Shown: positions 10,672 to 47,000 of the stretch, piece after piece | How positions within the stretch are numbered: position 1 is the first letter of the stretch | Layout of the letters: each line of letters starts with the position of its first letter | Virus record (IMG/VR): IMGVR_UViG_3300028800_000060 | Location: 64,001-128,000 of that record | DNA: 64,000 bases | DNA from: a virus | Reading direction: 5' to 3' (one strand) | The notes under the pieces: model-generated | The model's database searches: none | Told to the model about the DNA's origin: nothing | The model's input: the letters and a program-made list of their open reading frames with translations, nothing else | Position numbers and translations under genes: made by a program

Positions 10672-11898
10672 ATGCCAGAACTTAATGTACAGAAATTTCT
10701 TCGTGAGGTTCCGGGAGGACTTATTCGGCTTCAAGAGCCTCCCTATAATTTGAAAGTTAGACCGCATCCAGAATTTGCCAATCTGGTTTCTTTTTGTTAT
10801 GACCAGATTGATTCTCCAAAAGCCGATCCGATTGTACTTGAATGCCGGGGTCTGATTCTCGATTCACAAGATAATTGGAACGTAGTTGCTTTTCCTTTTA
10901 CCAGATTTTTCAATGATGGAGAATTCCAAGCGGCAAAGATTGACTGGAATACTGCACGAGTATATGAGAAAGTTGATGGCACTCTCATAATCATGTATTG
11001 GTATGAAGGTAAGTGGCGTATTGCTACTCGTGGTAGCCCGAATGCCTCTGGTTCTGTTGGTTTTTTTCCTTGGATAGAAAATGGTAGTACTGTTCCTTTA
11101 ACATATGAACGGCTCTTTTGGCGTTCTGCGGAACATTGGCTTAAGGGACTCAGTAAGTCTGGTGAATTCGATTCTACATGCACTTATATGTGGGAATTAA
11201 CTTCACCACTAAATCGTGTAGTTTGTGATTATACGGAAATTGGTCCCGTGGGCCAATGTATTGATGGAAATAATAAGCTCGTTTGGGTAGATACTGAAAT
11301 TGATAACACTGGCTATGCCCATGATGGTTCTCGGATCACATTAATTGGTATCCGTAATAATATAACATTTAAGGAATATGACATTAAGTATTCCGATGCG
11401 CATTATAAAGCAAAATATTTTCCTCTTAGAGATTTACAAGAGGTAATCACTGCCGCTTCAAAATTAAATCCGTTACGTCAAGAGGGATTTGTGGTCGTTG
11501 ATGGTGATTACAATCGGGTCAAGATTAAATCGCCCGTTTATGTGGCATTCCATCATTTACGAGATGGAAATCCTAGAAAGCGTTTAATGGAGATCATTCA
11601 ATCTGGTGAAAAAGAAGAAATGATGGCTTATAAAATATTGGATGAGTTCCCGGCTGAAAAGAAAATGTATGAAGAGATGCTTGCGGAAGTTGAATCTTTA
11701 ATCTTGCAAACCGAACAAATATATGATAGAATTAAAGATATTGAATTGCAAAAAGACTTTGCATTAGAAGCTTTGAAATCTCCAATGCCATATGCATTAT
11801 TTGGAATGCGTAAAGGATTGAGAGATCAAAAAACTATCCGACAAATCATTCTTTCTTGCCCGACACAAAAGTTATTGGATATGCTAAAAGGAAAATAA
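10672..11898 (+). CDS. rnlA: RNA ligase 1 (T4 RnlA-like)
   Basis: ECRGLIL, FTRFFN, motif I EKVDGT, IATRG, WELTSP.NRVV, EGFVV, RVKIKSP.Y. Confidence 0.9.
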   Translation: MPELNVQKFLREVPGGLIRLQEPPYNLKVRPHPEFANLVSFCYDQIDSPKADPIVLECRGLILDSQDNWNVVAFPFTRFFNDGEFQAAKIDWNTARVYEKVDGTLIIMYWYEGKWRIATRGSPNASGSVGFFPWIENGSTVPLTYERLFWRSAEHWLKGLSKSGEFDSTCTYMWELTSPLNRVVCDYTEIGPVGQCIDGNNKLVWVDTEIDNTGYAHDGSRITLIGIRNNITFKEYDIKYSDAHYKAKYFPLRDLQEVITAASKLNPLRQEGFVVVDGDYNRVKIKSPVYVAFHHLRDGNPRKRLMEIIQSGEKEEMMAYKILDEFPAEKKMYEEMLAEVESLILQTEQIYDRIKDIELQKDFALEALKSPMPYALFGMRKGLRDQKTIRQIILSCPTQKLLDMLKGK

Positions 11899-22780: not shown

Positions 22781-23440
22781 ATGACTAAATGTTCCATACA
22801 CACTGAAAATAATATTTTTTACCATGATTCTCTACACGAAACTGACATATGTTTTCAGTGTGTGTGGGACTGGTTTGGTGAACATAGAGAACAAAAAGAG
22901 CACGTGGCGAAACTAACTTACATGAGTTGTGGTCCCGATGTATTCATTGATATTGGTAATTTCGAATCGGGTAAAACCTATCGAAATTATTACAAGACAA
23001 TTATAAATGTTTCCGATTCTTTTTCGGAATATGCCACACATTGGTTCCCCATAAATGAAATATCTCCTTGGACTTATGCACCATTTTATTGGTTCAAGAA
23101 AATTGCGGATAGAAAACGAAATGAATATATTTTAGTCCACTGTGCCGCTGGAATACATAGATCTTTAATGATGGCACATTGTTGGCTACTTTCTTTGGGT
23201 TATTCACAAGAACAATCGGCCGAAATTTTTAATTGCCCTAATATCATTAGGGATTATTACCACGACATTCAGACGGGAATTATACCAGAAGATCTCTTGG
23301 TATTTTATAAAATCATGAATGATCATCCTACTTGGTCTTTACCCGGGTGCTTGCGAGACTTAGGAATACCTAATCTACTCAATAATACAAGTTTGCGTAA
23401 AACTACCAAATATCAGGACTATTTAGGAAATACACTATAA
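22781..23440 (+). CDS. dual-specificity/tyrosine phosphatase family protein
   Basis: LVHCAAGIHRS (CX5R). Confidence 0.85.
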   Translation: MTKCSIHTENNIFYHDSLHETDICFQCVWDWFGEHREQKEHVAKLTYMSCGPDVFIDIGNFESGKTYRNYYKTIINVSDSFSEYATHWFPINEISPWTYAPFYWFKKIADRKRNEYILVHCAAGIHRSLMMAHCWLLSLGYSQEQSAEIFNCPNIIRDYYHDIQTGIIPEDLLVFYKIMNDHPTWSLPGCLRDLGIPNLLNNTSLRKTTKYQDYLGNTL

Positions 23441-23448
23441 ATAGTGTT

Positions 23449-23862
23449 GTGCTTCCAATTCTACAAAAAATACACGAACCCGGTGAATTTTGTCCTACCA
23501 TCAAAGATGTTAGAAAATGGCACGGAGTTTTGAATGAGGCAGTATTTGATGGAGTTGTTCCTAAATTTTATGATATTGTAATCGTAGATAAACTTCCCCG
23601 TCAATTTGCGGCCACAATGGCCTTAAAAGATAAAAAGGTACCTGATAAACGTTTTGCCCGTTTAGAAATTAATCCTAGATTTCCATCTTTCAAAAAATTT
23701 ATCATCATACTCATCCACGAAATGATACATTGTTGGCAATGGATATGCGAAAATCGGATGGATCATGGAAAGACATTCTTTCAGTGGAAAGAAAAATTAA
23801 AAGATCAGGGAATACCTTTGAGTGAAAAATATCACAGAAAATTTCTTGACATACCTGAATAG
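23449..23862 (+). CDS. SprT-like zinc metalloprotease
   Basis: LNEAVF, LIHEMIH, HGKTF. Confidence 0.85.
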   Translation: MLPILQKIHEPGEFCPTIKDVRKWHGVLNEAVFDGVVPKFYDIVIVDKLPRQFAATMALKDKKVPDKRFARLEINPRFPSFKKFIIILIHEMIHCWQWICENRMDHGKTFFQWKEKLKDQGIPLSEKYHRKFLDIPE

Positions 23863-24909: not shown

Positions 24910-24986
24910 CGGGATGTAGCGCAATCTGGTAGCGCATCTGATTTGGGATCAGAGGGTCGCTGGTTCGAATCCAGCCATCCCGACCA
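24910..24986 (+). tRNA. tRNA-Pro(TGG)
   Basis: Full cloverleaf: CGGGATG/CATCCCG acceptor, TCTGA-TTTGGGA-TCAGA anticodon arm, TTCGAAT T loop, encoded CCA. Confidence 0.97.
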
Positions 24987-25827: not shown

Positions 25828-26066
25828 CAGTAAAAAAATTAGAAACGAAGAAATTGGACCCCGTAGACTACAAACACAAAGATATTCCGTTTATGTTTTT
25901 TACGGCAGGCTCTCTAGCATGCGAATTATTCCTTAATGCCGAGGAAATTATTTATAAGCTTACCAATAATGGTATTAAGAAATATTGTATTGATCCAGAA
26001 AATACTTTTTTTGATGTGATGGAAGTGGAAATCGATAAAATCTCGTGGCGTGTTAAAAGTGCATAG
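25824..26066 (+). CDS. hypothetical protein
   Basis: AAGGA SD; ATGA overlap. Confidence 0.6.
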   Translation: MTVKKLETKKLDPVDYKHKDIPFMFFTAGSLACELFLNAEEIIYKLTNNGIKKYCIDPENTFFDVMEVEIDKISWRVKSA

Positions 26067-26083
26067 TTGTTCGTAAAGGTGGA

Positions 26084-26151
26084 TGTGGCATAGCTTAAGT
26101 ATAAAGCACTACGGCATCCGGTGAAATACGGGGATGAACCATGTTATACCA
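26084..26151 (+). ncRNA. possible truncated tRNA-like element lacking an anticodon arm
   Basis: TGTGGCA/TGTTATA acceptor-like stem followed by CCA, TA-GCTT-AAGTATA-AAGC D arm, CATCCG-GTGAAATA-CGGGGATG hairpin. Confidence 0.35.
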
Positions 26152-26536
26152 AATGAAAGGTTGGTTGCCCACCAAGAATTTTAGCGGTATTATCGTATAG
26201 ATCTGTGTAGACACTTTTTCGGACCCGGGTTCGACTCCCGGCAGGTCCACCAAGATACACTAAATGGGTAACAGACTGGCCTCTTTTAATACATTCTCTA
26301 GTGGGCTGGCGAAGTGCAATGGGACCTAGAGCATTTGGTGTATCTCGGTGGGCCTGTAATGGTTTCGACGAGACTGTTGCGAGCATGGTGCGATACGTGG
26401 ACTACCCACGTTAAACAGAAGAAAACAACAAAAGACACAGAAATGTATCTAGCAATGGCTGCGTAAGCAGCATTGAGGGGTTTGGTAGTTTTCCTTTTTA
26501 CCCAAAAACTACCCCCTTCGGGGTTCCCTCCTTTTT
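26152..26536 (+). ncRNA. ssrA: circularly permuted (two-piece) tmRNA: acceptor piece about 26152-26252, intervening segment 26253-26349, coding piece 26350 to about 26536
   Basis: The 3' module GGAC-CCGGG-TTCGACT-CCCGG-CAGGTCC-ACCA precedes the 5' module GGGCCTG-TAATGGTTTCGAC; G3.U70 and A73 present; P2 helices pair across the pieces; tag ORF ...KDTEMYLAMAA-TAA (stop 26464-26466) lies in a hairpin. Confidence 0.92.
26477..26536 (+). terminator. 3' hairpins and terminator of the tmRNA coding piece
   Basis: GGTAGTTTT/AAAACTACC stem, CCCC-TTCG-GGG UUCG hairpin, GAGGG/CCCTC closing stem, T-tract. Confidence 0.6.
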
Positions 26537-26580
26537 AAATAATTCTTGCAAAATAAAAATGTCTGTGATATAATATAAGC

Positions 26581-26838
26581 ATGAATATAAATCTGTTGGT
26601 AGATGAAGCGGTATTCGAAACACTTTTCATTGACCATCCCTTATACACAATGACACCCCATTCATTTGCTCTAGAAATTGAACGAATTGTACGGGAACAA
26701 AAGATAGATTATTTGGCCGCAACAGCGCAATTATGCGAACAATATGAAATCGATTATTCCTCTATTCCCAAACTCCTTACAAAAACAATGAAAGAAAAGA
26801 TTGAAGTATCCGCACTTGAAAGAAATTATAAAATATGA
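26581..26838 (+). CDS. 33: late-transcription coactivator gp33
   Basis: F..EIE.IV....IDY..A....CE...ID...IPKL.....KEKIE..A; synteny with 59 and 32. Confidence 0.85.
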   Translation: MNINLLVDEAVFETLFIDHPLYTMTPHSFALEIERIVREQKIDYLAATAQLCEQYEIDYSSIPKLLTKTMKEKIEVSALERNYKI

Positions 26839-26966: not shown

Positions 26967-27590
26967 GTGAATGCCTTTGAAGCTTACGAAACCTATCTTT
27001 CGATAAAACAACACTTCACTCAGAAGTCTTACGACTTCCATAAGTATAATGGAAAAGTCAACACTTCAGTTTCTCGTTTTGAATCTCGTCCCGATAGAGC
27101 TTTTTTCTATAAAATTTCCAAGAAATATCCTAAAGATAAATTGATAGATTTCTTCGTTGCTAATTTTGTTGCCAATCCTTTTTCTTGGATTGGCGATATG
27201 ATGGATGATTATTCTGAGGAAGTTTATATCGACTGGAAGAAAAAAATTGAAAGTTTAACTTATTATTTTTCGGAAGAGTGCGATGCTATGTTGCATTGGG
27301 CCGAAATGAATAGTTATAAATTTAATGACCTATTTAAAATCAATGGTTCAGATCATCCGATTATTGTTAAAATGTCATTGCAACGTGTCCTTAGTTTCGA
27401 ATCTTTTATTATCCTCAATAGGATATTTTCTTTTGGACAAAATTTCGATAGAAAAATGGAAGATGTAATTTGGAAAGAATTTTGGTTTAAAATTTGCAAA
27501 TATGAAACCTTTCTAAATAATATTGATAGGAAGAAATGTAAACAAATTCTTCGAAATAAAATAGAAACGGATTATCCCCATGTTGTATGA
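26967..27590 (+). CDS. 59: helicase loader gp59
   Basis: Y.TYLSIKQHFT...YDFHKYNGK....F..R.DR.FF.K. Confidence 0.9.
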   Translation: MNAFEAYETYLSIKQHFTQKSYDFHKYNGKVNTSVSRFESRPDRAFFYKISKKYPKDKLIDFFVANFVANPFSWIGDMMDDYSEEVYIDWKKKIESLTYYFSEECDAMLHWAEMNSYKFNDLFKINGSDHPIIVKMSLQRVLSFESFIILNRIFSFGQNFDRKMEDVIWKEFWFKICKYETFLNNIDRKKCKQILRNKIETDYPHVV

Positions 27591-28043
27591 AGATTTAGTA
27601 GAGCATTATAATGCGGTATGTGAAAAATGCAGTAAGGCAATTGCACGCGCCAATGATGAAATTGCAAAAAGAGGATGCCTTGAAATCGAGTTGGCCGGCC
27701 TAAGAAATGAATTGAAAGAAGCGTATGGAGAAATATCAGAATTAAAATGCCAAATACCAAATTAGCTGTATCCAAAAATGACGATGAGATATTACAATTT
27801 ACGGTATCAAGTACAGATCCAGAATTATTTTGTAAGATCTCGGATTATATCCGAACTATAAAAGAAACCAAAGAAGTGGAGCCTAGTCCGCAATTATTAC
27901 TCGAAACCGAAAATTTTTAACTTTAGTAGCATTTGACATACCTTAAAATTTGTGATATACTAAATAGAATAGTAGTTCCTATATTATGGAGGTCCTGTGA
28001 ACAAGACAAATACAAATACAAAAAAAGAGAAAATATAAAACAT

Positions 28044-29039
28044 ATGAGCTTTGCATCATACAAAAAGAGTCGTACAGATTTAACAAGTTTAAATAAAAAA
28101 GTAGAAGAAATTGCCGAAGGTACTCGAAAGTCTTTTAAAGACGAGCGTATTTGGAGAGTTACCGTCGATAAAGCTGGTTCTGGTTCCGCCCGCCTCAGGT
28201 TTTTATCTGCCCCAGATGGAGAAGATCTTCCTTGGGTTCAATATCACGAACATAATTTTTCTATCAATGGGTCTTATTTTATAGAATTATGCCCGACCAC
28301 ATTAGGACGTGAATGCCCTGTCTGTAAGGCAAACAATGTTTTGTGGAATCTTGATGGTGGTGTTAAGGAAAATCAGGATATTGTTCGTAATAGAAAACGT
28401 AAGTTAGTCTATATTTCCAATATCTACGTCATTAAAGATAAAGAAAATACAGAAACCGAAGGAAAGGTTTATCTTTATCAATACGGACAAAAAATCTTCG
28501 AGAAGATCAAAATGGCATTAAAGCCTAAGGATGAAGATGATCCTGCTGTTAATGTTTTTGATTTTTGGGAAGGTGCTGATTTTGCTTTAGAAGTAAAGAA
28601 TGTTGCTGGTTATCGTAATTACGATGATAGTAAATTCAGGGCACCGTCAGCCTTATTGTCTGGCGATGATAAGAAACTCGAAGAGATTTATAAGAAGTTA
28701 TATCCACTTCTTCCCTTCAAGGATGAAAAGAAATTTAAGTCCTACGAAGAGTTGGAAAAGAAATTCAATGATGTAATTTCTGGAGTAAAAGGAAAAGTAC
28801 AGAAAAAAGCTGATCAACTTTTCCCTGAAACCGCGCCAGTGGCCGCCGATGCACCAGCGCCAAAGAAAGAACGTAAACCTAAAGAAACTGCCACAGAAGA
28901 AACACCTTGGAAGGAACCTACACGCAAGCCCAAGGCATCTTCTAAAAAAGAACCAAAAACTGAACCAACAGTTGAAGATGTTCCTTTAGAGGATAATGAT
29001 GCATTAAATTATTACGAACAACTAGCAGAAGAAAACTAA
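28044..29039 (+). CDS. 32: single-stranded DNA-binding protein gp32
   Basis: DERIW...DKAGSG.A.LRFL, IELCPTTLG..CPVC, FDFWEGADF, YRNYD.S.F, acidic tail; start moved to ATG 28044. Confidence 0.95.
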   Translation: MSFASYKKSRTDLTSLNKKVEEIAEGTRKSFKDERIWRVTVDKAGSGSARLRFLSAPDGEDLPWVQYHEHNFSINGSYFIELCPTTLGRECPVCKANNVLWNLDGGVKENQDIVRNRKRKLVYISNIYVIKDKENTETEGKVYLYQYGQKIFEKIKMALKPKDEDDPAVNVFDFWEGADFALEVKNVAGYRNYDDSKFRAPSALLSGDDKKLEEIYKKLYPLLPFKDEKKFKSYEELEKKFNDVISGVKGKVQKKADQLFPETAPVAADAPAPKKERKPKETATEETPWKEPTRKPKASSKKEPKTEPTVEDVPLEDNDALNYYEQLAEEN

Positions 29040-29202: not shown

Positions 29203-31977
29203 TTAACTGTGAACGCTGTTTCTGTATCTTGTATCTCTATATGTATTATCCGTATTATGTGGTTGTTGCTGTTGAGCTAATACAGTAGTGTTATTTTGTT
29301 GGTTATTTGTCGGAGCAATAATATTACCCCCTCCGCTTCCTTTTTTAGAAGCTATGTCTGCCTTTTTATCCTCATTATCTTTTGTTGCAGCCAATAAAGT
29401 TTTACCTTGTGCGGGTGGTTCTTTTTGTGCCATATCAACATTTGGTGCTTTATAACCAAAAGCTATAGCTTCATCATCTCTTCGTGCTTGTAAACCTTTA
29501 CTAAATTCTAGTTTGCCAGATTTATTAGGCACCTTATTATATTCTCTCATTTTTTCACCAGCTTTTTGGGCTGAATCATGATTACCAGAATTCAAAATTG
29601 ATGCGATATTTTTTAATTTCCCCACACCTACGTTATAACTAAAATCCACAAGTGAATCAAACATTTGCTGAGAAATTGGTACTTTAACTGCATCATTAAC
29701 CGCACTCTCATATTTACCAAGATCTTTAGCTAATAATTGTGTAGCTTGTTCGGGAGTAATTTCTGTAAATTTTTCACCAGGTTGAATTTGATGTCCGTAA
29801 CCTATAGAGAATTTACCTGAACCGGGAGGATCAGGAAAAGGTTTCAACGCCCATTTAGGAAGTCCTTCATATTTCTTTAATCTATTAATTCCTTCAGAAC
29901 TCATCTTCATATTATTTTTTCCTCCATTTTTCGTTAATAACGATGGTGTATTTTCCGGTTTTGTTTCTATTGGTTTTTCCCTTTTCATTACTTCTGATGC
30001 GGGATTTACACCATTAAATCCTTGCATTACAAGAGGAACAGTTGACTTTGGTGCAATAATAGTTCCTGTAGGAGCTTTTATTGCTGGTGTTTTATCTGCT
30101 ATCTTCGGTGAAGAGTTTATTATTTGCTCCGGTTTTTTAATATCAACATGTTCCTGTTCTTTTTCCTTTTCTTCTTCGGGATAAGAGAATGTCTTTTTTG
30201 CTATATCTGGATAATGTTGCAATAACCAATCTTTAAATAAACCATTATGTTTTTTATCATCCGTAAATTTTCCGAATTTTTCGTTTACTTTACGAACCCA
30301 AATACCATAAGGCATCCACCAAGGCTTTTCTACAGGCACTTTCATATCCCGCAAAAATTCAGCCATTTTATCAGTCCAGTTTTCTGCTGATACCCCATTT
30401 TTCTGTTCGCGAGCTTCACTAGCTCCTTTTGTGGCTACTTTTTCAATTAATTTAGCACCAGTAATACCAATAAGGGCCCCCGCACCTACGCCAGTAGCCG
30501 ATAATCCAACAACACCCGCAGTTGTTGCCGCTGCTCCACCTAAAGCAGCTTCTACTCCACCTGCGGCTGCTCCAGCAGCTTCTACTCCACCTGCGGCAGC
30601 TTCTACTCCACCTGCGGCAGCTTCTACTCCTGTTCCTATACCTAAAAGCCGTTTAATTAATCCTGCTCCACCCCGTAAAGCTTTCAATCCTAAATTAAGT
30701 TCTGTAAATTCACCAACTGTTTTAGTAATTGTATCTGTCAAAGAACCTTGTTTAGTATCTGTACCCGGTTTCATTAAACCGGTTTCTTTTTTTCCCGGAC
30801 CGAGTAGTTTTATGGAATTAATTAATTCTGCGTGTTCTCTCCGTGCAATAATCCGATTTTCTTCGTCTTCATCTAGTTGGTCATCGGTTTTAGTCTTATC
30901 ATCCTTGTGATTTTTTTCCAAAGTTTCATTTATTTTAACCGCAACTATTTTAAGATCTCCAACTTCACGTTCAAGCTTTTCTTGCGGAGCAATACCGCTA
31001 AAACCAGGAACAACACCTGGCTGTCTTTGAACATAATTACCTTCTTCAAAACCTTTAGCAAAATGTCCTTTAGCATTCCGTTTTCTTATTTTGCCTGATC
31101 CCAACAATTTAGGTGCGTTTTGTTGTGCTACAAAATCATCTGATGGAGGAGGTGTTACGATTGGTGGTGGAGGCGTTATTATCGGGTCATTTGGTTTTCT
31201 TTCAGCAGCCCCCTTTATTTCCCGGGAACTATATGGATGAGATGTGCGGGCCCTCTCCCTAGCTTCTTCGTGTTCTCTTTTTTCTTGCGAATTTAATAAT
31301 CTAGGAGGTGTAATATCTGGTGGATTTGGTGGATTAGCTTCATAATCTGCTGCCGCATAAGTTTGATCTCCAATATCCTCATATTCAGCATCTACAATAT
31401 TTACCTTCGGTATTGGACCTGTAGTTTCTTCTGGTTCATTTTCTTGCTGCGCTCGTTTTCTACTTTTAGGTTCTTTGGGTTCTCGTGTACTTTTTCTTCT
31501 GCGGCGTCCCCCACCCTCTGTTTCTTCATAATCTTCTCCCGAACCTCTTCTAGAAGATCTTCTTTGTGGACGTAAAGACCCTTCCATTTGTTTTTGTAAA
31601 CGTTCACGGCGCTTGTGAAGGTAAACACGGAATTCAGCAATACCAAAATCATTTTCTTTTTTGGCAGCCTCTTTGGCCATTCTAAATCTTTCAAACATAT
31701 ACTTGATACCTAAATTAATAAGTGGCGACTTACTAGTAAAAGCAACGAGCATATTTTCAGCATCATATCCCTGTTTTTTAAGGAAATTATTTACATGAGA
31801 ATTTACTTCATTCGCACGTTTTCCCGAATTTTTTGCTGCATTACGGACAGCCCTAACTCGTATTTCCGCATCATACATCGCCTTTTCTGTTTCACTCAAT
31901 GTTTCGCGAATTTTTTTGGCCATTTCAGAAACGGCGGCATTAACTTGGTCAACCTGTTTTTTGATATTGCTGTCCAT
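29203..31977 (-). CDS. tape-measure/baseplate-hub-like protein with GH24 lysozyme domain
   Basis: Helical N-terminus, Gly/Ala hydrophobic stretch, SSEGINRLKKYEG..D..G..SIGYGH..FDSLVDFSYNVG..GLQARR..E, and C-terminal IIAPTNNQQNNTT. Confidence 0.75.
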   Translation of the reverse strand: MDSNIKKQVDQVNAAVSEMAKKIRETLSETEKAMYDAEIRVRAVRNAAKNSGKRANEVNSHVNNFLKKQGYDAENMLVAFTSKSPLINLGIKYMFERFRMAKEAAKKENDFGIAEFRVYLHKRRERLQKQMEGSLRPQRRSSRRGSGEDYEETEGGGRRRRKSTREPKEPKSRKRAQQENEPEETTGPIPKVNIVDAEYEDIGDQTYAAADYEANPPNPPDITPPRLLNSQEKREHEEARERARTSHPYSSREIKGAAERKPNDPIITPPPPIVTPPPSDDFVAQQNAPKLLGSGKIRKRNAKGHFAKGFEEGNYVQRQPGVVPGFSGIAPQEKLEREVGDLKIVAVKINETLEKNHKDDKTKTDDQLDEDEENRIIARREHAELINSIKLLGPGKKETGLMKPGTDTKQGSLTDTITKTVGEFTELNLGLKALRGGAGLIKRLLGIGTGVEAAAGGVEAAAGGVEAAGAAAGGVEAALGGAAATTAGVVGLSATGVGAGALIGITGAKLIEKVATKGASEAREQKNGVSAENWTDKMAEFLRDMKVPVEKPWWMPYGIWVRKVNEKFGKFTDDKKHNGLFKDWLLQHYPDIAKKTFSYPEEEKEKEQEHVDIKKPEQIINSSPKIADKTPAIKAPTGTIIAPKSTVPLVMQGFNGVNPASEVMKREKPIETKPENTPSLLTKNGGKNNMKMSSEGINRLKKYEGLPKWALKPFPDPPGSGKFSIGYGHQIQPGEKFTEITPEQATQLLAKDLGKYESAVNDAVKVPISQQMFDSLVDFSYNVGVGKLKNIASILNSGNHDSAQKAGEKMREYNKVPNKSGKLEFSKGLQARRDDEAIAFGYKAPNVDMAQKEPPAQGKTLLAATKDNEDKKADIASKKGSGGGNIIAPTNNQQNNTTVLAQQQQPHNTDNTYRDTRYRNSVHS
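30545..30632 (-). repeat. 21-bp coding repeats (GVEAAAG)
   Basis: GCAGCTTCTACTCC(ACCTGCG) occurs four times. Confidence 0.85.
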
Positions 31978-44004: not shown

Positions 44005-47000
44005 ATGGCTAACGATAACCTAATACTATTACAACCTTCGGATTTAATCAGTACATCCCGAGAAACTATTAATACAGATTTTCTTTTATTGGATGGTTTA
44101 ATTAATAGATTTTACCTCGCAAACAGCACACTTATCGGTCCTCCTGGTATAACTTTTCAAGGTACTTATGATGCTTTACACACCTATATTTTAGGTGATG
44201 GTGTGCTATTTGGAAGTTCTTCGTATGTAAGTTTACAAATTGACAATACTGGTAATCAACCTGATATTTCACCATTATTTTGGCAATTAGTTGCTGAAGG
44301 AGGAATACCTGGAGCTACTGGTCCAAGTGGATCAACGGGAACACCAGGTACAAATGGAAGTATAGGTGCTACAGGAGCAACAGGACCAATAGGTGCTATA
44401 GGAGCCACAGGTACATCTGGTATACCTGGTATAATTTGGCGAGGTAATTGGAGTAGTATAGTAACTTATAATGTGGGTGATGTTGTAGAACGAAATGGTT
44501 CAGCATATATTGCTACAGGAATTTCTTTAAATTTAGATCCAGCATTTAATCCCACATTTTGGAATGTGTTAGCAATGAAGGGTGATACCGGTGTTACTGG
44601 TGATGTAGGTGCGTCTGGAACACCAGGAACAGTGGGGGCAACGGGACCACAAGGAACAAGTTTAGTATACCGAGGTTTGTGGAATAATACTACCACTTAT
44701 GATTTACTAAACATGGTAAATTTTGGTGGTCAAGCTTATGTTGCTATTACTGGTTCAAATACTGGTTTACAACCAGATTTATTCCCTTCAAATTGGAATC
44801 AAATAACAATTACAGTTGTTGGTTCTACTGGTGCCACAGGAGCTTCTGGAACTCCGGGAGGAGCTACAGGTCCTTCTGGTGCTACAGGATCAACAGGACC
44901 AATAGGTGCTACGGGACCTGGTGGGGGTGGTGGAGGTGGAGGATCATTTGTTACTGCTTCGTCTTTAGGTGCAGTACTCGATTGTGATCTTAATACTGGA
45001 ACTAAAATTGGTGGCGGAACTGCTACTGATAATACGGCAATATTACAAGCCTATATCAATACAGCAAGTCAAGCTACACCAGCACATTTAATTATGGATG
45101 GTCCATCTTTAATTACGGGACTACAAATACCTGCGGCAGGTTATGTTATTATTGAAGGTGAAGGACTTGATACGGGATTTTATTTGAAATCAGGTTCAGG
45201 AAATGGTATCTTTAGTAACCGTCCCGGTAGTATTCCAGGATCACGAGGAGTTTTCGTTCAAATGAGAAATTTTTCATTGAATGTTAATGGTCCTGGTAAT
45301 GGTTTAGTTTATGGAATATATCTGTCTAATTTAGATCATGTACTTTTTTCTGACCTCCGAATTTTTAATGCTGTATGGTTTAATACTACAATAGAAAATT
45401 GTGGTGATGTGAATTTTGAAAACTTGTCGATACAAGGTACAAATACAGTACACCAAGATGGTATCCATATTTTTGGACCGGCTAATGATATTTCTATTAG
45501 TAATTGTAGATTTATTGCCTTGGGTGATGATGCTATTGCTATAAATGCTCCAGAAGGATATGGTGGGACTATATCAAGAGTTACGGTAACAAATTGTATA
45601 TTTTATAGCACACTGACTATGGCCAGAATATACAGCGTAATTGCCACAAATTACACTGTAGATAATGTGGTTTTTTCGAACTGCACCGGTAATATTATCA
45701 ATTCTATTGGCGTAGCTAATGGAGTTGGTTTTCGTATTGGTAATGGTGGAGTAGGAGCTACACAAGATTGGATAAGACATCTTTCTATAAATAATTGCCG
45801 TGTAATTGGATTGGCATTTATGGAATTTAGTGATAATGCCGGTGATATTTCTGTGAGTAATTGTACCTATACGTGTAATGATGGTTCTGTGCCCGCATTT
45901 TATTTCGTTGCCAATTCAATTGTGGCTCATTTAAATATCGATAACTTCACTCTGTATCGGGACGCATCTGGTTTTTCTACACCTTATTTGGTATCAACTT
46001 CTTATGGAACAGGAGGAGCGGTTCCTGGAATAATTAACCTCCTTAATCTCCGAAATTATCAAATCGTGAATGCTGTTGGAACCAGTTATGCTGGTGTCCA
46101 GACTAGCATGTTTAATACCACACAAGGAACTATTAATGAGATAGGACTTTCCAATATCAATAAAAATTATATTGGAACTGTTGCTACCAATTATGCTAAC
46201 ATTGGATCTATTGGTGGAATAGGTTGTTCTGTATTTACTTTACCTGATGCGCCAATTAAAATAGGAACTGTTTACCTTTCATTGAGTAATATTCCTACTA
46301 TTATGACCAATGTCGGTCCCATCCGGATAATTAAGGGTGGAAGAATGTATTCGGGTGATATTGATCCAACACCACATTCGGTTACCATGGTACAACATGC
46401 TAGTATTTCAGGTTCAACAACATTGGCATTCCCATCTGATGTTACGGCAGGAAATACGCTTGTTGTTGTTGCCAGAAATAATTCTTCACTTCCAAATCCT
46501 ACAGTTGTTACAGATACTAGAGGAAATAGTTGGACTCAAGCTGCATATGGTTCAGGACAAAATAATAATTTTCCGAATCAAGTTTCGATTTCTTATGCTA
46601 TTGCCAATTCATCAGGACCAAATACAGTTTCAGTTCCTGGTGGTCCCTATTTAATTGTAGTAGAATTTAATCCTGGAATTCATGTTCTGGATTTTTCTGC
46701 GGGTACAGTACAAGGTTTGGGAGGTCCACCTGCTCCTAATTTATTGCTATCACAATATGGTGATTTAGTTATTACAGCAGCAACTTATGATGGTGGTTCT
46801 TTTACTGATGTTGGTGAAACCACTATTGATAGTGCTGCTAATGTCGCGGCTTCATATAAAGCGGTTTTAAGTATCGGTTCATTTACAAGTAGTTTGACAG
46901 GATCTAGTTCTAACCAAGGTTATGCTAGTGCTGCATTTACAACAAGTATAGCTCCGGGAGATGATGGTGATTGGTACATCAATACAAATACTGGTGTCCT

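Follow-up and report, generated by a model that had tools for sequence, protein, structure and literature searches.

A circularly permuted tmRNA gene of predicted beta-like type upstream of gp33 in an uncultured aquatic T4-like myovirus

Does the DNA directly upstream of gp33 in an uncultured virus encode a two-piece tmRNA, and if so, how did such a gene come to reside there and what might it do for the phage? The stretch analysed, referred to here as the window, comprises 64,000 nucleotides (bases 64001-128000; GC 36.6%) of a 175,698-bp (175.7-kb) IMG/VR virus record with an estimated completeness of 98%. The window encodes the T4-type baseplate wedge proteins, RNA ligase 1, ribonucleotide reductase, gp32, gp59 and gp33. 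By gp6, the nearest cultured phages are the Pelagibacter phages Mosig and HTVC008M and the Methylophilales phage Melnitz (39.7% amino acid identity), and by gp59 they are cyanomyoviruses (about 40% identity). The carrier of the tmRNA is an uncultured, aquatic T4-like myovirus and, as judged by its gp6 baseplate protein, a distant relative of the pelagimyophage/Melnitz group; a search for psbA found none, indicating that it is no obvious cyanophage. It is very likely, as argued below, that the locus specifies a functional two-piece tmRNA of this myovirus, beta-like in type and inherited within a phage clade, that would work through host factors.

Elsewhere in the window, a 924-aa protein (29203-31977, minus strand) carries an endolysin-type domain confined to its last ~260 residues (phrog_7) and is probably a virion-associated lysin fusion. 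Two small genes at 22781-23862 (plus strand) have weak Pfam matches, one being dual-specificity phosphatase-like, below cut-off, and the other a SprT-like metalloprotease (36.1 bits).

The general model for permuted tmRNAs, RF04321 (tmRNA_permuted), matches 26191-26466 over its entire length (model positions 1-213 of 213) with 97.4 bits (gathering score 47; E = 1.1e-17 for 64 kb and 4227 families). An earlier note, made from the letters alone, had claimed a circularly permuted tmRNA in a T4-like phage, and the Rfam models confirm it, with RF04321 above its cut-off and the features lying where the note had placed them. The beta_tmRNA model, RF01850, also aligns over its full length, including the 3' domain, with 82.2 bits (E = 3.8e-25), a borderline score that falls 2 bits under the curated cut-off of 84 and so does not reach the gathering threshold. 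The remaining models score 36.7 (alpha), 38.8 (cyano) and 29.5 bits (standard tmRNA, RF00023) at the locus, and as the best-scoring of the three permuted models points to it, the predicted subtype is beta-type. ARAGORN, which the earlier note had proposed to use in its permuted mode, made no call at the locus for technical reasons, whether in default mode, in linear -m mode, with lowered thresholds or on the un-permuted construct, and its circular mode on an excerpt produced a wrap-around artefact with a wrong tag. The gene is thus called by the newer general model RF04321 alone, being missed by ARAGORN and narrowly missed by the curated beta model, and phage annotation pipelines will consequently under-report such genes. 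No match to the locus emerged when 50,697 phage records were searched by blastn and megablast, and exact-word scans turned up no near-identical copy of the spacer or the tag. Most hits of a scan with a degenerate P2 pattern were due to chance, and two already-known clade members alone passed the screen.

The gene occupies 26191-26536 on the plus strand in permuted order, the CCA at 26250-26252 lying upstream of G1 at 26350 and of the tag at 26434-26466. The gene, its parts and its neighbours are arranged as follows.

26165..26193, plus strand: candidate sigma70-type promoter TTGCCC-17-TATTAT, 9/12 consensus matches, uncertain
26191..26252, plus strand: acceptor piece, with the P2 5' strands (26191-26221), then a GAC linker, the T arm, the acceptor 3' strand, A73 and CCA
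26225-26241, plus strand: T arm CCGGG-TTCGACT-CCCGG, 5/5 T-stem pairs
26242-26248, plus strand: acceptor 3' strand CAGGTCC, 7/7 acceptor-stem pairs
26249 and 26250-26252, plus strand: A73 and the encoded CCA, present in the sequence
26253..26349, plus strand: spacer (intervening segment) of 97 nt between the pieces, presumably removed in maturation
26253-26260 with 26338-26345, plus strand: closing stem of the spacer, all 8 pairs covarying, 87% of cells paired
26350..26536, plus strand: coding piece GGGCCTG-TAATGGTTTCGAC, starting at G26350 by the RF04321 and RF01850 alignments and the fold
26350-26356, plus strand: acceptor 5' strand, with G3 at 26352, giving G3.U70
within the coding piece, plus strand: D-loop analogue TAATGGTTTCGA
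26369-26395, plus strand: P2 3' strands of the coding piece, then a hairpin at 26396-26410
26434-26466, plus strand: tag frame GAC ACA GAA ATG TAT CTA GCA ATG GCT GCG TAA
26464-26466, plus strand: stop TAA in the loop of the hairpin GCTGC-GTAA-GCAGC (26458-26471)
26475..26513, plus strand: 3' domain, with stem S2 and probable pseudoknot stem S1
26484-26492 with 26505-26513, plus strand: stem S2, GGTAGTTTT/AAAACTACC, from the fold
26476-26480 with 26493-26497, plus strand: probable pseudoknot stem S1, AGGGG with CCTTT, covarying in homologues
26520..26536, plus strand: weak terminator-like hairpin GGGG-TTCC-CTCC followed by TTTTT, from the fold and unflagged by the consensus scan; probable 3' end of the coding piece
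26546..26574, plus strand: promoter-like site TTGCAA-17-(TG)TATAAT before gp33, 10/12 matches with TG extension
26581..26838, plus strand: gp33 late-transcription coactivator, syntenic neighbour of the tmRNA
26967-27590 and 27933-29039, plus strand: gp59 and then gp32, downstream of gp33

The three neighbouring genes were assigned by PF16805 (gp33), PF08993/PF08994 (gp59) and PF08804 (gp32). The T arm, the acceptor stem with G3.U70 and A73, the encoded CCA, the four P2 segments (22 pairs in the window, all canonical) and the tag DTEMYLAMAA with its stop in a hairpin loop had all been described in the earlier note, and all are present. Sites resembling the promoter candidate at 26165..26193 are no more frequent here than in shuffled sequence, and GGTATTATCGT at this candidate is conserved in L004, a close relative. 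The candidate is uncertain in that its -10 box runs into the outermost P2 strand, so that transcription would start inside that strand. As this is the only sigma70-like site, the 5' end of the RNA is uncertain as well.

Beyond its closing stem, the spacer is predicted to fold as a long hairpin that stacks on the acceptor stem, and the precursor fold of 26240-26362 has an energy of -51.3 kcal/mol (z -4.7). Reading the spacer as coding was considered and rejected, as it holds a lone 21-codon ATG frame that lacks a Shine-Dalgarno sequence and lies within the hairpin. The distance from encoded CCA to G1 is 97 nt in the window and merely 6-7 nt in L004 (1451-1590, plus strand) and L099 (1501-1641, plus strand). 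Spacers of several other kin hold small ORFs (L095 1546-1758, minus strand; L103 1504-1747, plus strand; L097 1557-1850, minus strand): a hydrophobic 22-aa peptide in L095/L096, a 29-aa membrane-like peptide behind AGGAG in L103, and in L097 an ORF behind AAGGAAG that extends into the coding piece.

Homologues were found through a gp59 search, which yielded L002/L015 (179.7-kb genome), L004 (176.8 kb), L003 and L016/L099 at 54-62% amino acid identity. A permuted tmRNA lies upstream of gp33-gp59, in the same slot as in the window, in L002, L004 and L099; another 10 of 50 more distant T4-like contigs carry a permuted tmRNA, and the exact 26-nt word from the T arm and acceptor strand occurs in ten other viral contigs. 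The earlier note had allowed that the order might be an artefact of assembly, which is ruled out by its recurrence in at least 14 independent contigs.

These homologues also permitted the covariation check that the earlier note had suggested. In alignment A3 (n = 14), 75.5% of cells are paired versus 56.5% in shuffles (0/500 shuffles as high), double-sided changes number 131 versus 56 in shuffles, and slid controls have 38-46% of cells paired. By helix, pairing amounts to 100% in the acceptor stem, 95.7% in the T stem and 65% in outer P2, and within P2a the innermost three pairs are 100% paired and the remaining two 76.9%. Within the RNA, conservation is highest in the tRNA-like domain: the acceptor stem pairs 7/7, with G3.U70 and A73 invariant in 14/14 homologues and many compensatory changes, including at positions 4-6, and the T stem pairs 5/5 in all homologues except L002, which is misregistered. 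The inner and outer P2 helices covary across the 14 sequences and the middle ones among the closest kin alone, P2b and P2c having 37-40% of cells paired outside the closest kin (MAFFT alignment) and thus not being conserved there. Among window, L004 and L099, compensatory changes can be read from A3 in both P2c and P2d; the P2c pairing CUGUGU/GCAUGG of the window becomes UAAUAU/GUAUUA in L004 and CUUUAU/GUAAAG in L099, with pairing kept. The duplex energy of P2 does not differ significantly from shuffles (z -2.1 to +0.6), and unconstrained cofolding gave a noisy result; the support for P2 therefore comes from covariation and not from thermodynamics. The earlier note had expected few or no pseudoknots, a view that does not hold: 3' of the tag lies one H-type pseudoknot, which is conserved, with a covarying stem 1, in the beta-type kin and in the alpha-type tmRNA of Melnitz. 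Compensatory S1 pairs in homologues include GAGU:ACUU, GGGU:ACCU and GAGG:CCUU; the minimum-energy fold of the 3' domain gives a nested alternative to this pseudoknot.

The tag predicted for the window RNA is (A)DTEMYLAMAA, with GAC (Asp) as the resume codon. It aligns gap-free to the RF01850 model, and the resume context A[CT]AAA[AC]-GAC, common to the window, L004, L099 and L002, aligns with the [AG]TAAA[CTA]-GCN of the beta-type kin. Resumption on Asp and not on Ala is thus a prediction from homology only, the frame being open further upstream; across the phage tmRNAs compared, the resume codon lies 82-90 nt into the coding piece. The four tags of this clade are DTEMYLAMAA, DEFNYSLPLAA, DEQYALPMAA and DESNFSYLQMAA, and other phage tags are ANDEKFALAA, ANDERFLMAA and similar. 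Tags end in [LM]AA plus stop in 15/16 phage tmRNAs (the tag of the cut-off L009 is unreadable), and a complete tag frame with its stop in the loop is found throughout the clade (four members) and in 11 more phage tmRNAs whose tag can be read.

How might such an RNA act? A search of the whole 98%-complete genome found no smpB, extending the earlier note's observation on the window, and smpB is also absent from the relatives L002 and L004 and from the cultured Synechococcus phage BUCT-ZZ01. Host SmpB would therefore be required, and, more broadly, the RNA would have to rely on host SmpB, AlaRS, EF-Tu and RNase P. In the mechanism that we propose, a single precursor would be transcribed, and the hairpin of the 97-nt spacer would form on top of the acceptor stem. 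Host RNase P would cleave 5' of G26350, and host 3' processing would expose the encoded CCA at 26252, leaving an acceptor piece of ~62 nt and a coding piece of ~187 nt held together by the 7-bp acceptor stem and P2. The host AlaRS would charge the RNA with alanine by way of G3.U70 and A73, and host SmpB and EF-Tu would bring it to stalled ribosomes, on the assumption that the RNA is compatible with the host's SmpB and AlaRS. Translation would then resume at GAC and append the degradation tag (A)DTEMYLAMAA. The prediction of a working tmRNA draws on the precursor hairpin (at the z-score given above), the identity elements and the conservation of the tag. Its role would likely be to provide more ribosome-rescue capacity while infection produces truncated mRNAs; alternatively, by analogy with the proposal of Buchholz et al. 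(PMC9004378), it may tag proteins for amino-acid recycling. A tRNA-Pro gene (TGG; 24910-24986, plus strand; ARAGORN, and 72.4 bits with Rfam) lies 1.2 kb upstream of the tmRNA, and a T4 RnlA-type RNA ligase 1 (phrog_562) is encoded at 10672-11898 (plus strand). RNA ligase 1, the tmRNA and the tRNA genes together show an investment of the phage in working translation RNAs.

Two other views of the RNA deny it a tagging function. It might mainly sequester host SmpB and so block host trans-translation without any tagging, a decoy role of the kind suggested for mycobacteriophage DS6A, whose molecule consists of the tRNA-like domain only (PMC4131195). This would accord with a phage that lacks smpB and with the tRNA-like domain being the best conserved part; the window RNA and its relatives, however, have kept the pseudoknot domain and a complete tag frame with conserved resume context, [LM]AA end and in-loop stop (four clade members and 11 other phage tmRNAs), and the decoy role is thus quite improbable. 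Alternatively, the locus might be a relic without function, or an attP-like piece of ssrA that an integration or excision event left behind, as 3' fragments of ssrA are common on temperate elements (PMC9004378). Here the two halves, their helices and the tag have all remained intact and covary, and the phage is of the T4-like lytic type (gp33, gp59, gp32 and baseplate genes), making a relic hardly credible.

Where the gene came from is a separate matter, on which the evidence consists of Rfam model scores and a phage-only tree. The earlier note had suggested that there may have been an independent event, in which a one-piece tmRNA of phage or host was newly rearranged within this T4-like lineage, and the failure of ARAGORN's permuted mode to recognise the gene, the beta score just below cut-off and the unusual resume codon can be cited for it. 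Yet the beta model gives 82.2 bits versus 36.7 (alpha) and 38.8 (cyano) and aligns with the RNA from end to end, 3' domain included; the RNA has the P2, hairpin, tag position and pseudoknot seen in beta- and alpha-type tmRNAs of other phages; with the beta model, T4-like kin obtain 100-140 bits (one further kin is cyano-type with 174 bits, and two are alpha-type); and the permuted tmRNA of Melnitz occupies the same slot. A new permutation is therefore very improbable, and this reading is largely refuted already. Recent direct capture of a two-piece ssrA from a betaproteobacterial host would explain why the gene subtypes as beta. Also in its favour is the 31-nt T arm and acceptor strand, identical to that of the unrelated phage contigs L005-L014 and L010, an identity that could stem from matching to a common host type or from recombination. 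Capture is nevertheless unlikely: an exact 26-mer scan found matches in 3 of ~185,000 species genomes, none of which has a permuted tmRNA; typical beta members score clearly higher; slot and Asp codon are common to the closest phage kin, whose RNA identity of 58-71% tracks gp59 relatedness; and BUCT-ZZ01 carries a beta-type tmRNA, yet the control genome of Synechococcus elongatus, its isolation host species, contains no permuted tmRNA over cut-off. A class-level sample around one of the 26-mer matches, consisting of small genomes, contained no beta tmRNA and is uninformative for this reason.

What these comparisons favour is that the tmRNA, which on sequence grounds is a member of the beta-like family of permuted tmRNAs, was inherited within a small phage clade. 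The phage-only tree groups the window with L099, L004 and L002 (support 0.958), beside the beta-like L100, and the window and L004 RNAs are 71% identical. Slot and Asp codon are both shared, and identity follows gp59 relatedness, all of which argues for inheritance in this clade, and the gene appears to be neither newly permuted nor freshly captured. A bolder extension holds that aquatic T4-like phages keep long-lived, vertically inherited two-piece tmRNA lineages that are untied to host type, and could even have seeded permuted ssrA in bacteria or exchanged it with them; the window clade, with its Asp codon and spacers shrinking to 6-7 nt, and BUCT-ZZ01 are offered as examples, and we regard this extension as improbable.

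The T arm and acceptor strand GACCCGGGTTCGACTCCCGGCAGGTCCACCA (26220-26252) is identical in L005-L014 and L010, the RNAs being otherwise only ~52% identical, which points either to convergence upon host factors or to a local recombination event. The gene context in those contigs is different, with thymidylate synthase and an exonuclease in L007, the sole contig examined.

Comparison with published systems places the window gene in familiar company. The earlier note knew phage tmRNAs as one-piece, as were all those listed in a 2014 tmRNA survey (PMC4131195), but Buchholz et al. (2022; PMC9004378) found 53 of the 133 unique phage tmRNAs to be two-piece, 50 of these 53 being aquatic, and of 47 Melnitz-like contigs, 17 carried a permuted tmRNA. 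The permuted calls in their Table S1 include HTVC008M, Mosig, S-CAM1, S-CAM3, S-CRM01, S-SSM7, S-CBWM1 and the phiCbK group, and a glutamine riboswitch is present in few such phages only (PMC9004378). That a match to a known two-piece lineage would reduce the novelty had been stated in the earlier note itself, and the novelty is reduced accordingly.

Melnitz, an OM43 phage, provides the closest parallel in genome position. In its GenBank record (MZ577097), the tmRNA at 45984-46436 is followed by gp33, gp59 and, further on, gp32, so that, as in the window phage, a permuted tmRNA lies directly upstream of gp33-gp59-gp32. Melnitz, Mosig and HTVC008M are, like the window phage, T4-like aquatic myoviruses without a phage smpB, and the 3' pseudoknot design is common to the Melnitz and window tmRNAs. 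The two RNAs are nonetheless only ~50% identical. The Melnitz tmRNA is alpha-type (106.7 bits), has a 3' glutamine riboswitch and begins its tag with ANDN on a GCA resume codon, whereas that of the window is beta-type by model score, begins its tag with D on GAC, and has no glutamine riboswitch at its locus (25950-26650, E up to 10). The betaproteobacterial two-piece tmRNA (Sharkady and Williams 2004, as cited in PMC9004378) is the best subtype match, with the whole RF01850 model aligned and a tag equal in length and gap-free to ANDEHFAMAA; the window RNA differs in its sub-threshold score (82.2 bits, cut-off 84), its Asp resume codon and its location in a phage genome.

Other beta-type phage tmRNAs (L095, L096, L098, L100, L101, L005-L014, L010 and BUCT-ZZ01) have the same gene order, helices and pseudoknot, but score 94-140 bits, carry AND...-type tags on GCN codons and are 50-56% identical to the window RNA. 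The one-piece phage tmRNAs of the mycobacteriophage Bxz1 group and Bacillus phage G (PMC4131195) resemble it as phage ssrA genes without smpB, and differ in having the standard gene order, the window RNA scoring just 29.5 bits on RF00023. BUCT-ZZ01 (Kyanoviridae) was isolated on S. elongatus PCC 7942, and its tmRNA (ON615601.1, 116891-117291; L140 1501-1901, minus strand) is unannotated, scores 94.5 bits on RF01850 and has the tag ANDETFSMALAA.

The window gene thus joins the two-piece phage tmRNAs already published at the same genome position and is no new invention; its novelties are small, namely the beta-like type in the slot used by Melnitz, the clade with an Asp resume codon and the invisibility to ARAGORN. 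Taken alone, it leaves current understanding unchanged. The BUCT-ZZ01 copy offers a laboratory system in which the role of a phage tmRNA in infection can be tested. The window gene confirms that an RNA for ribosome rescue recurs as an accessory gene among aquatic T4-like phages, in which the published alpha-type and cyano-type cases are now joined by a beta-like form in the same slot.
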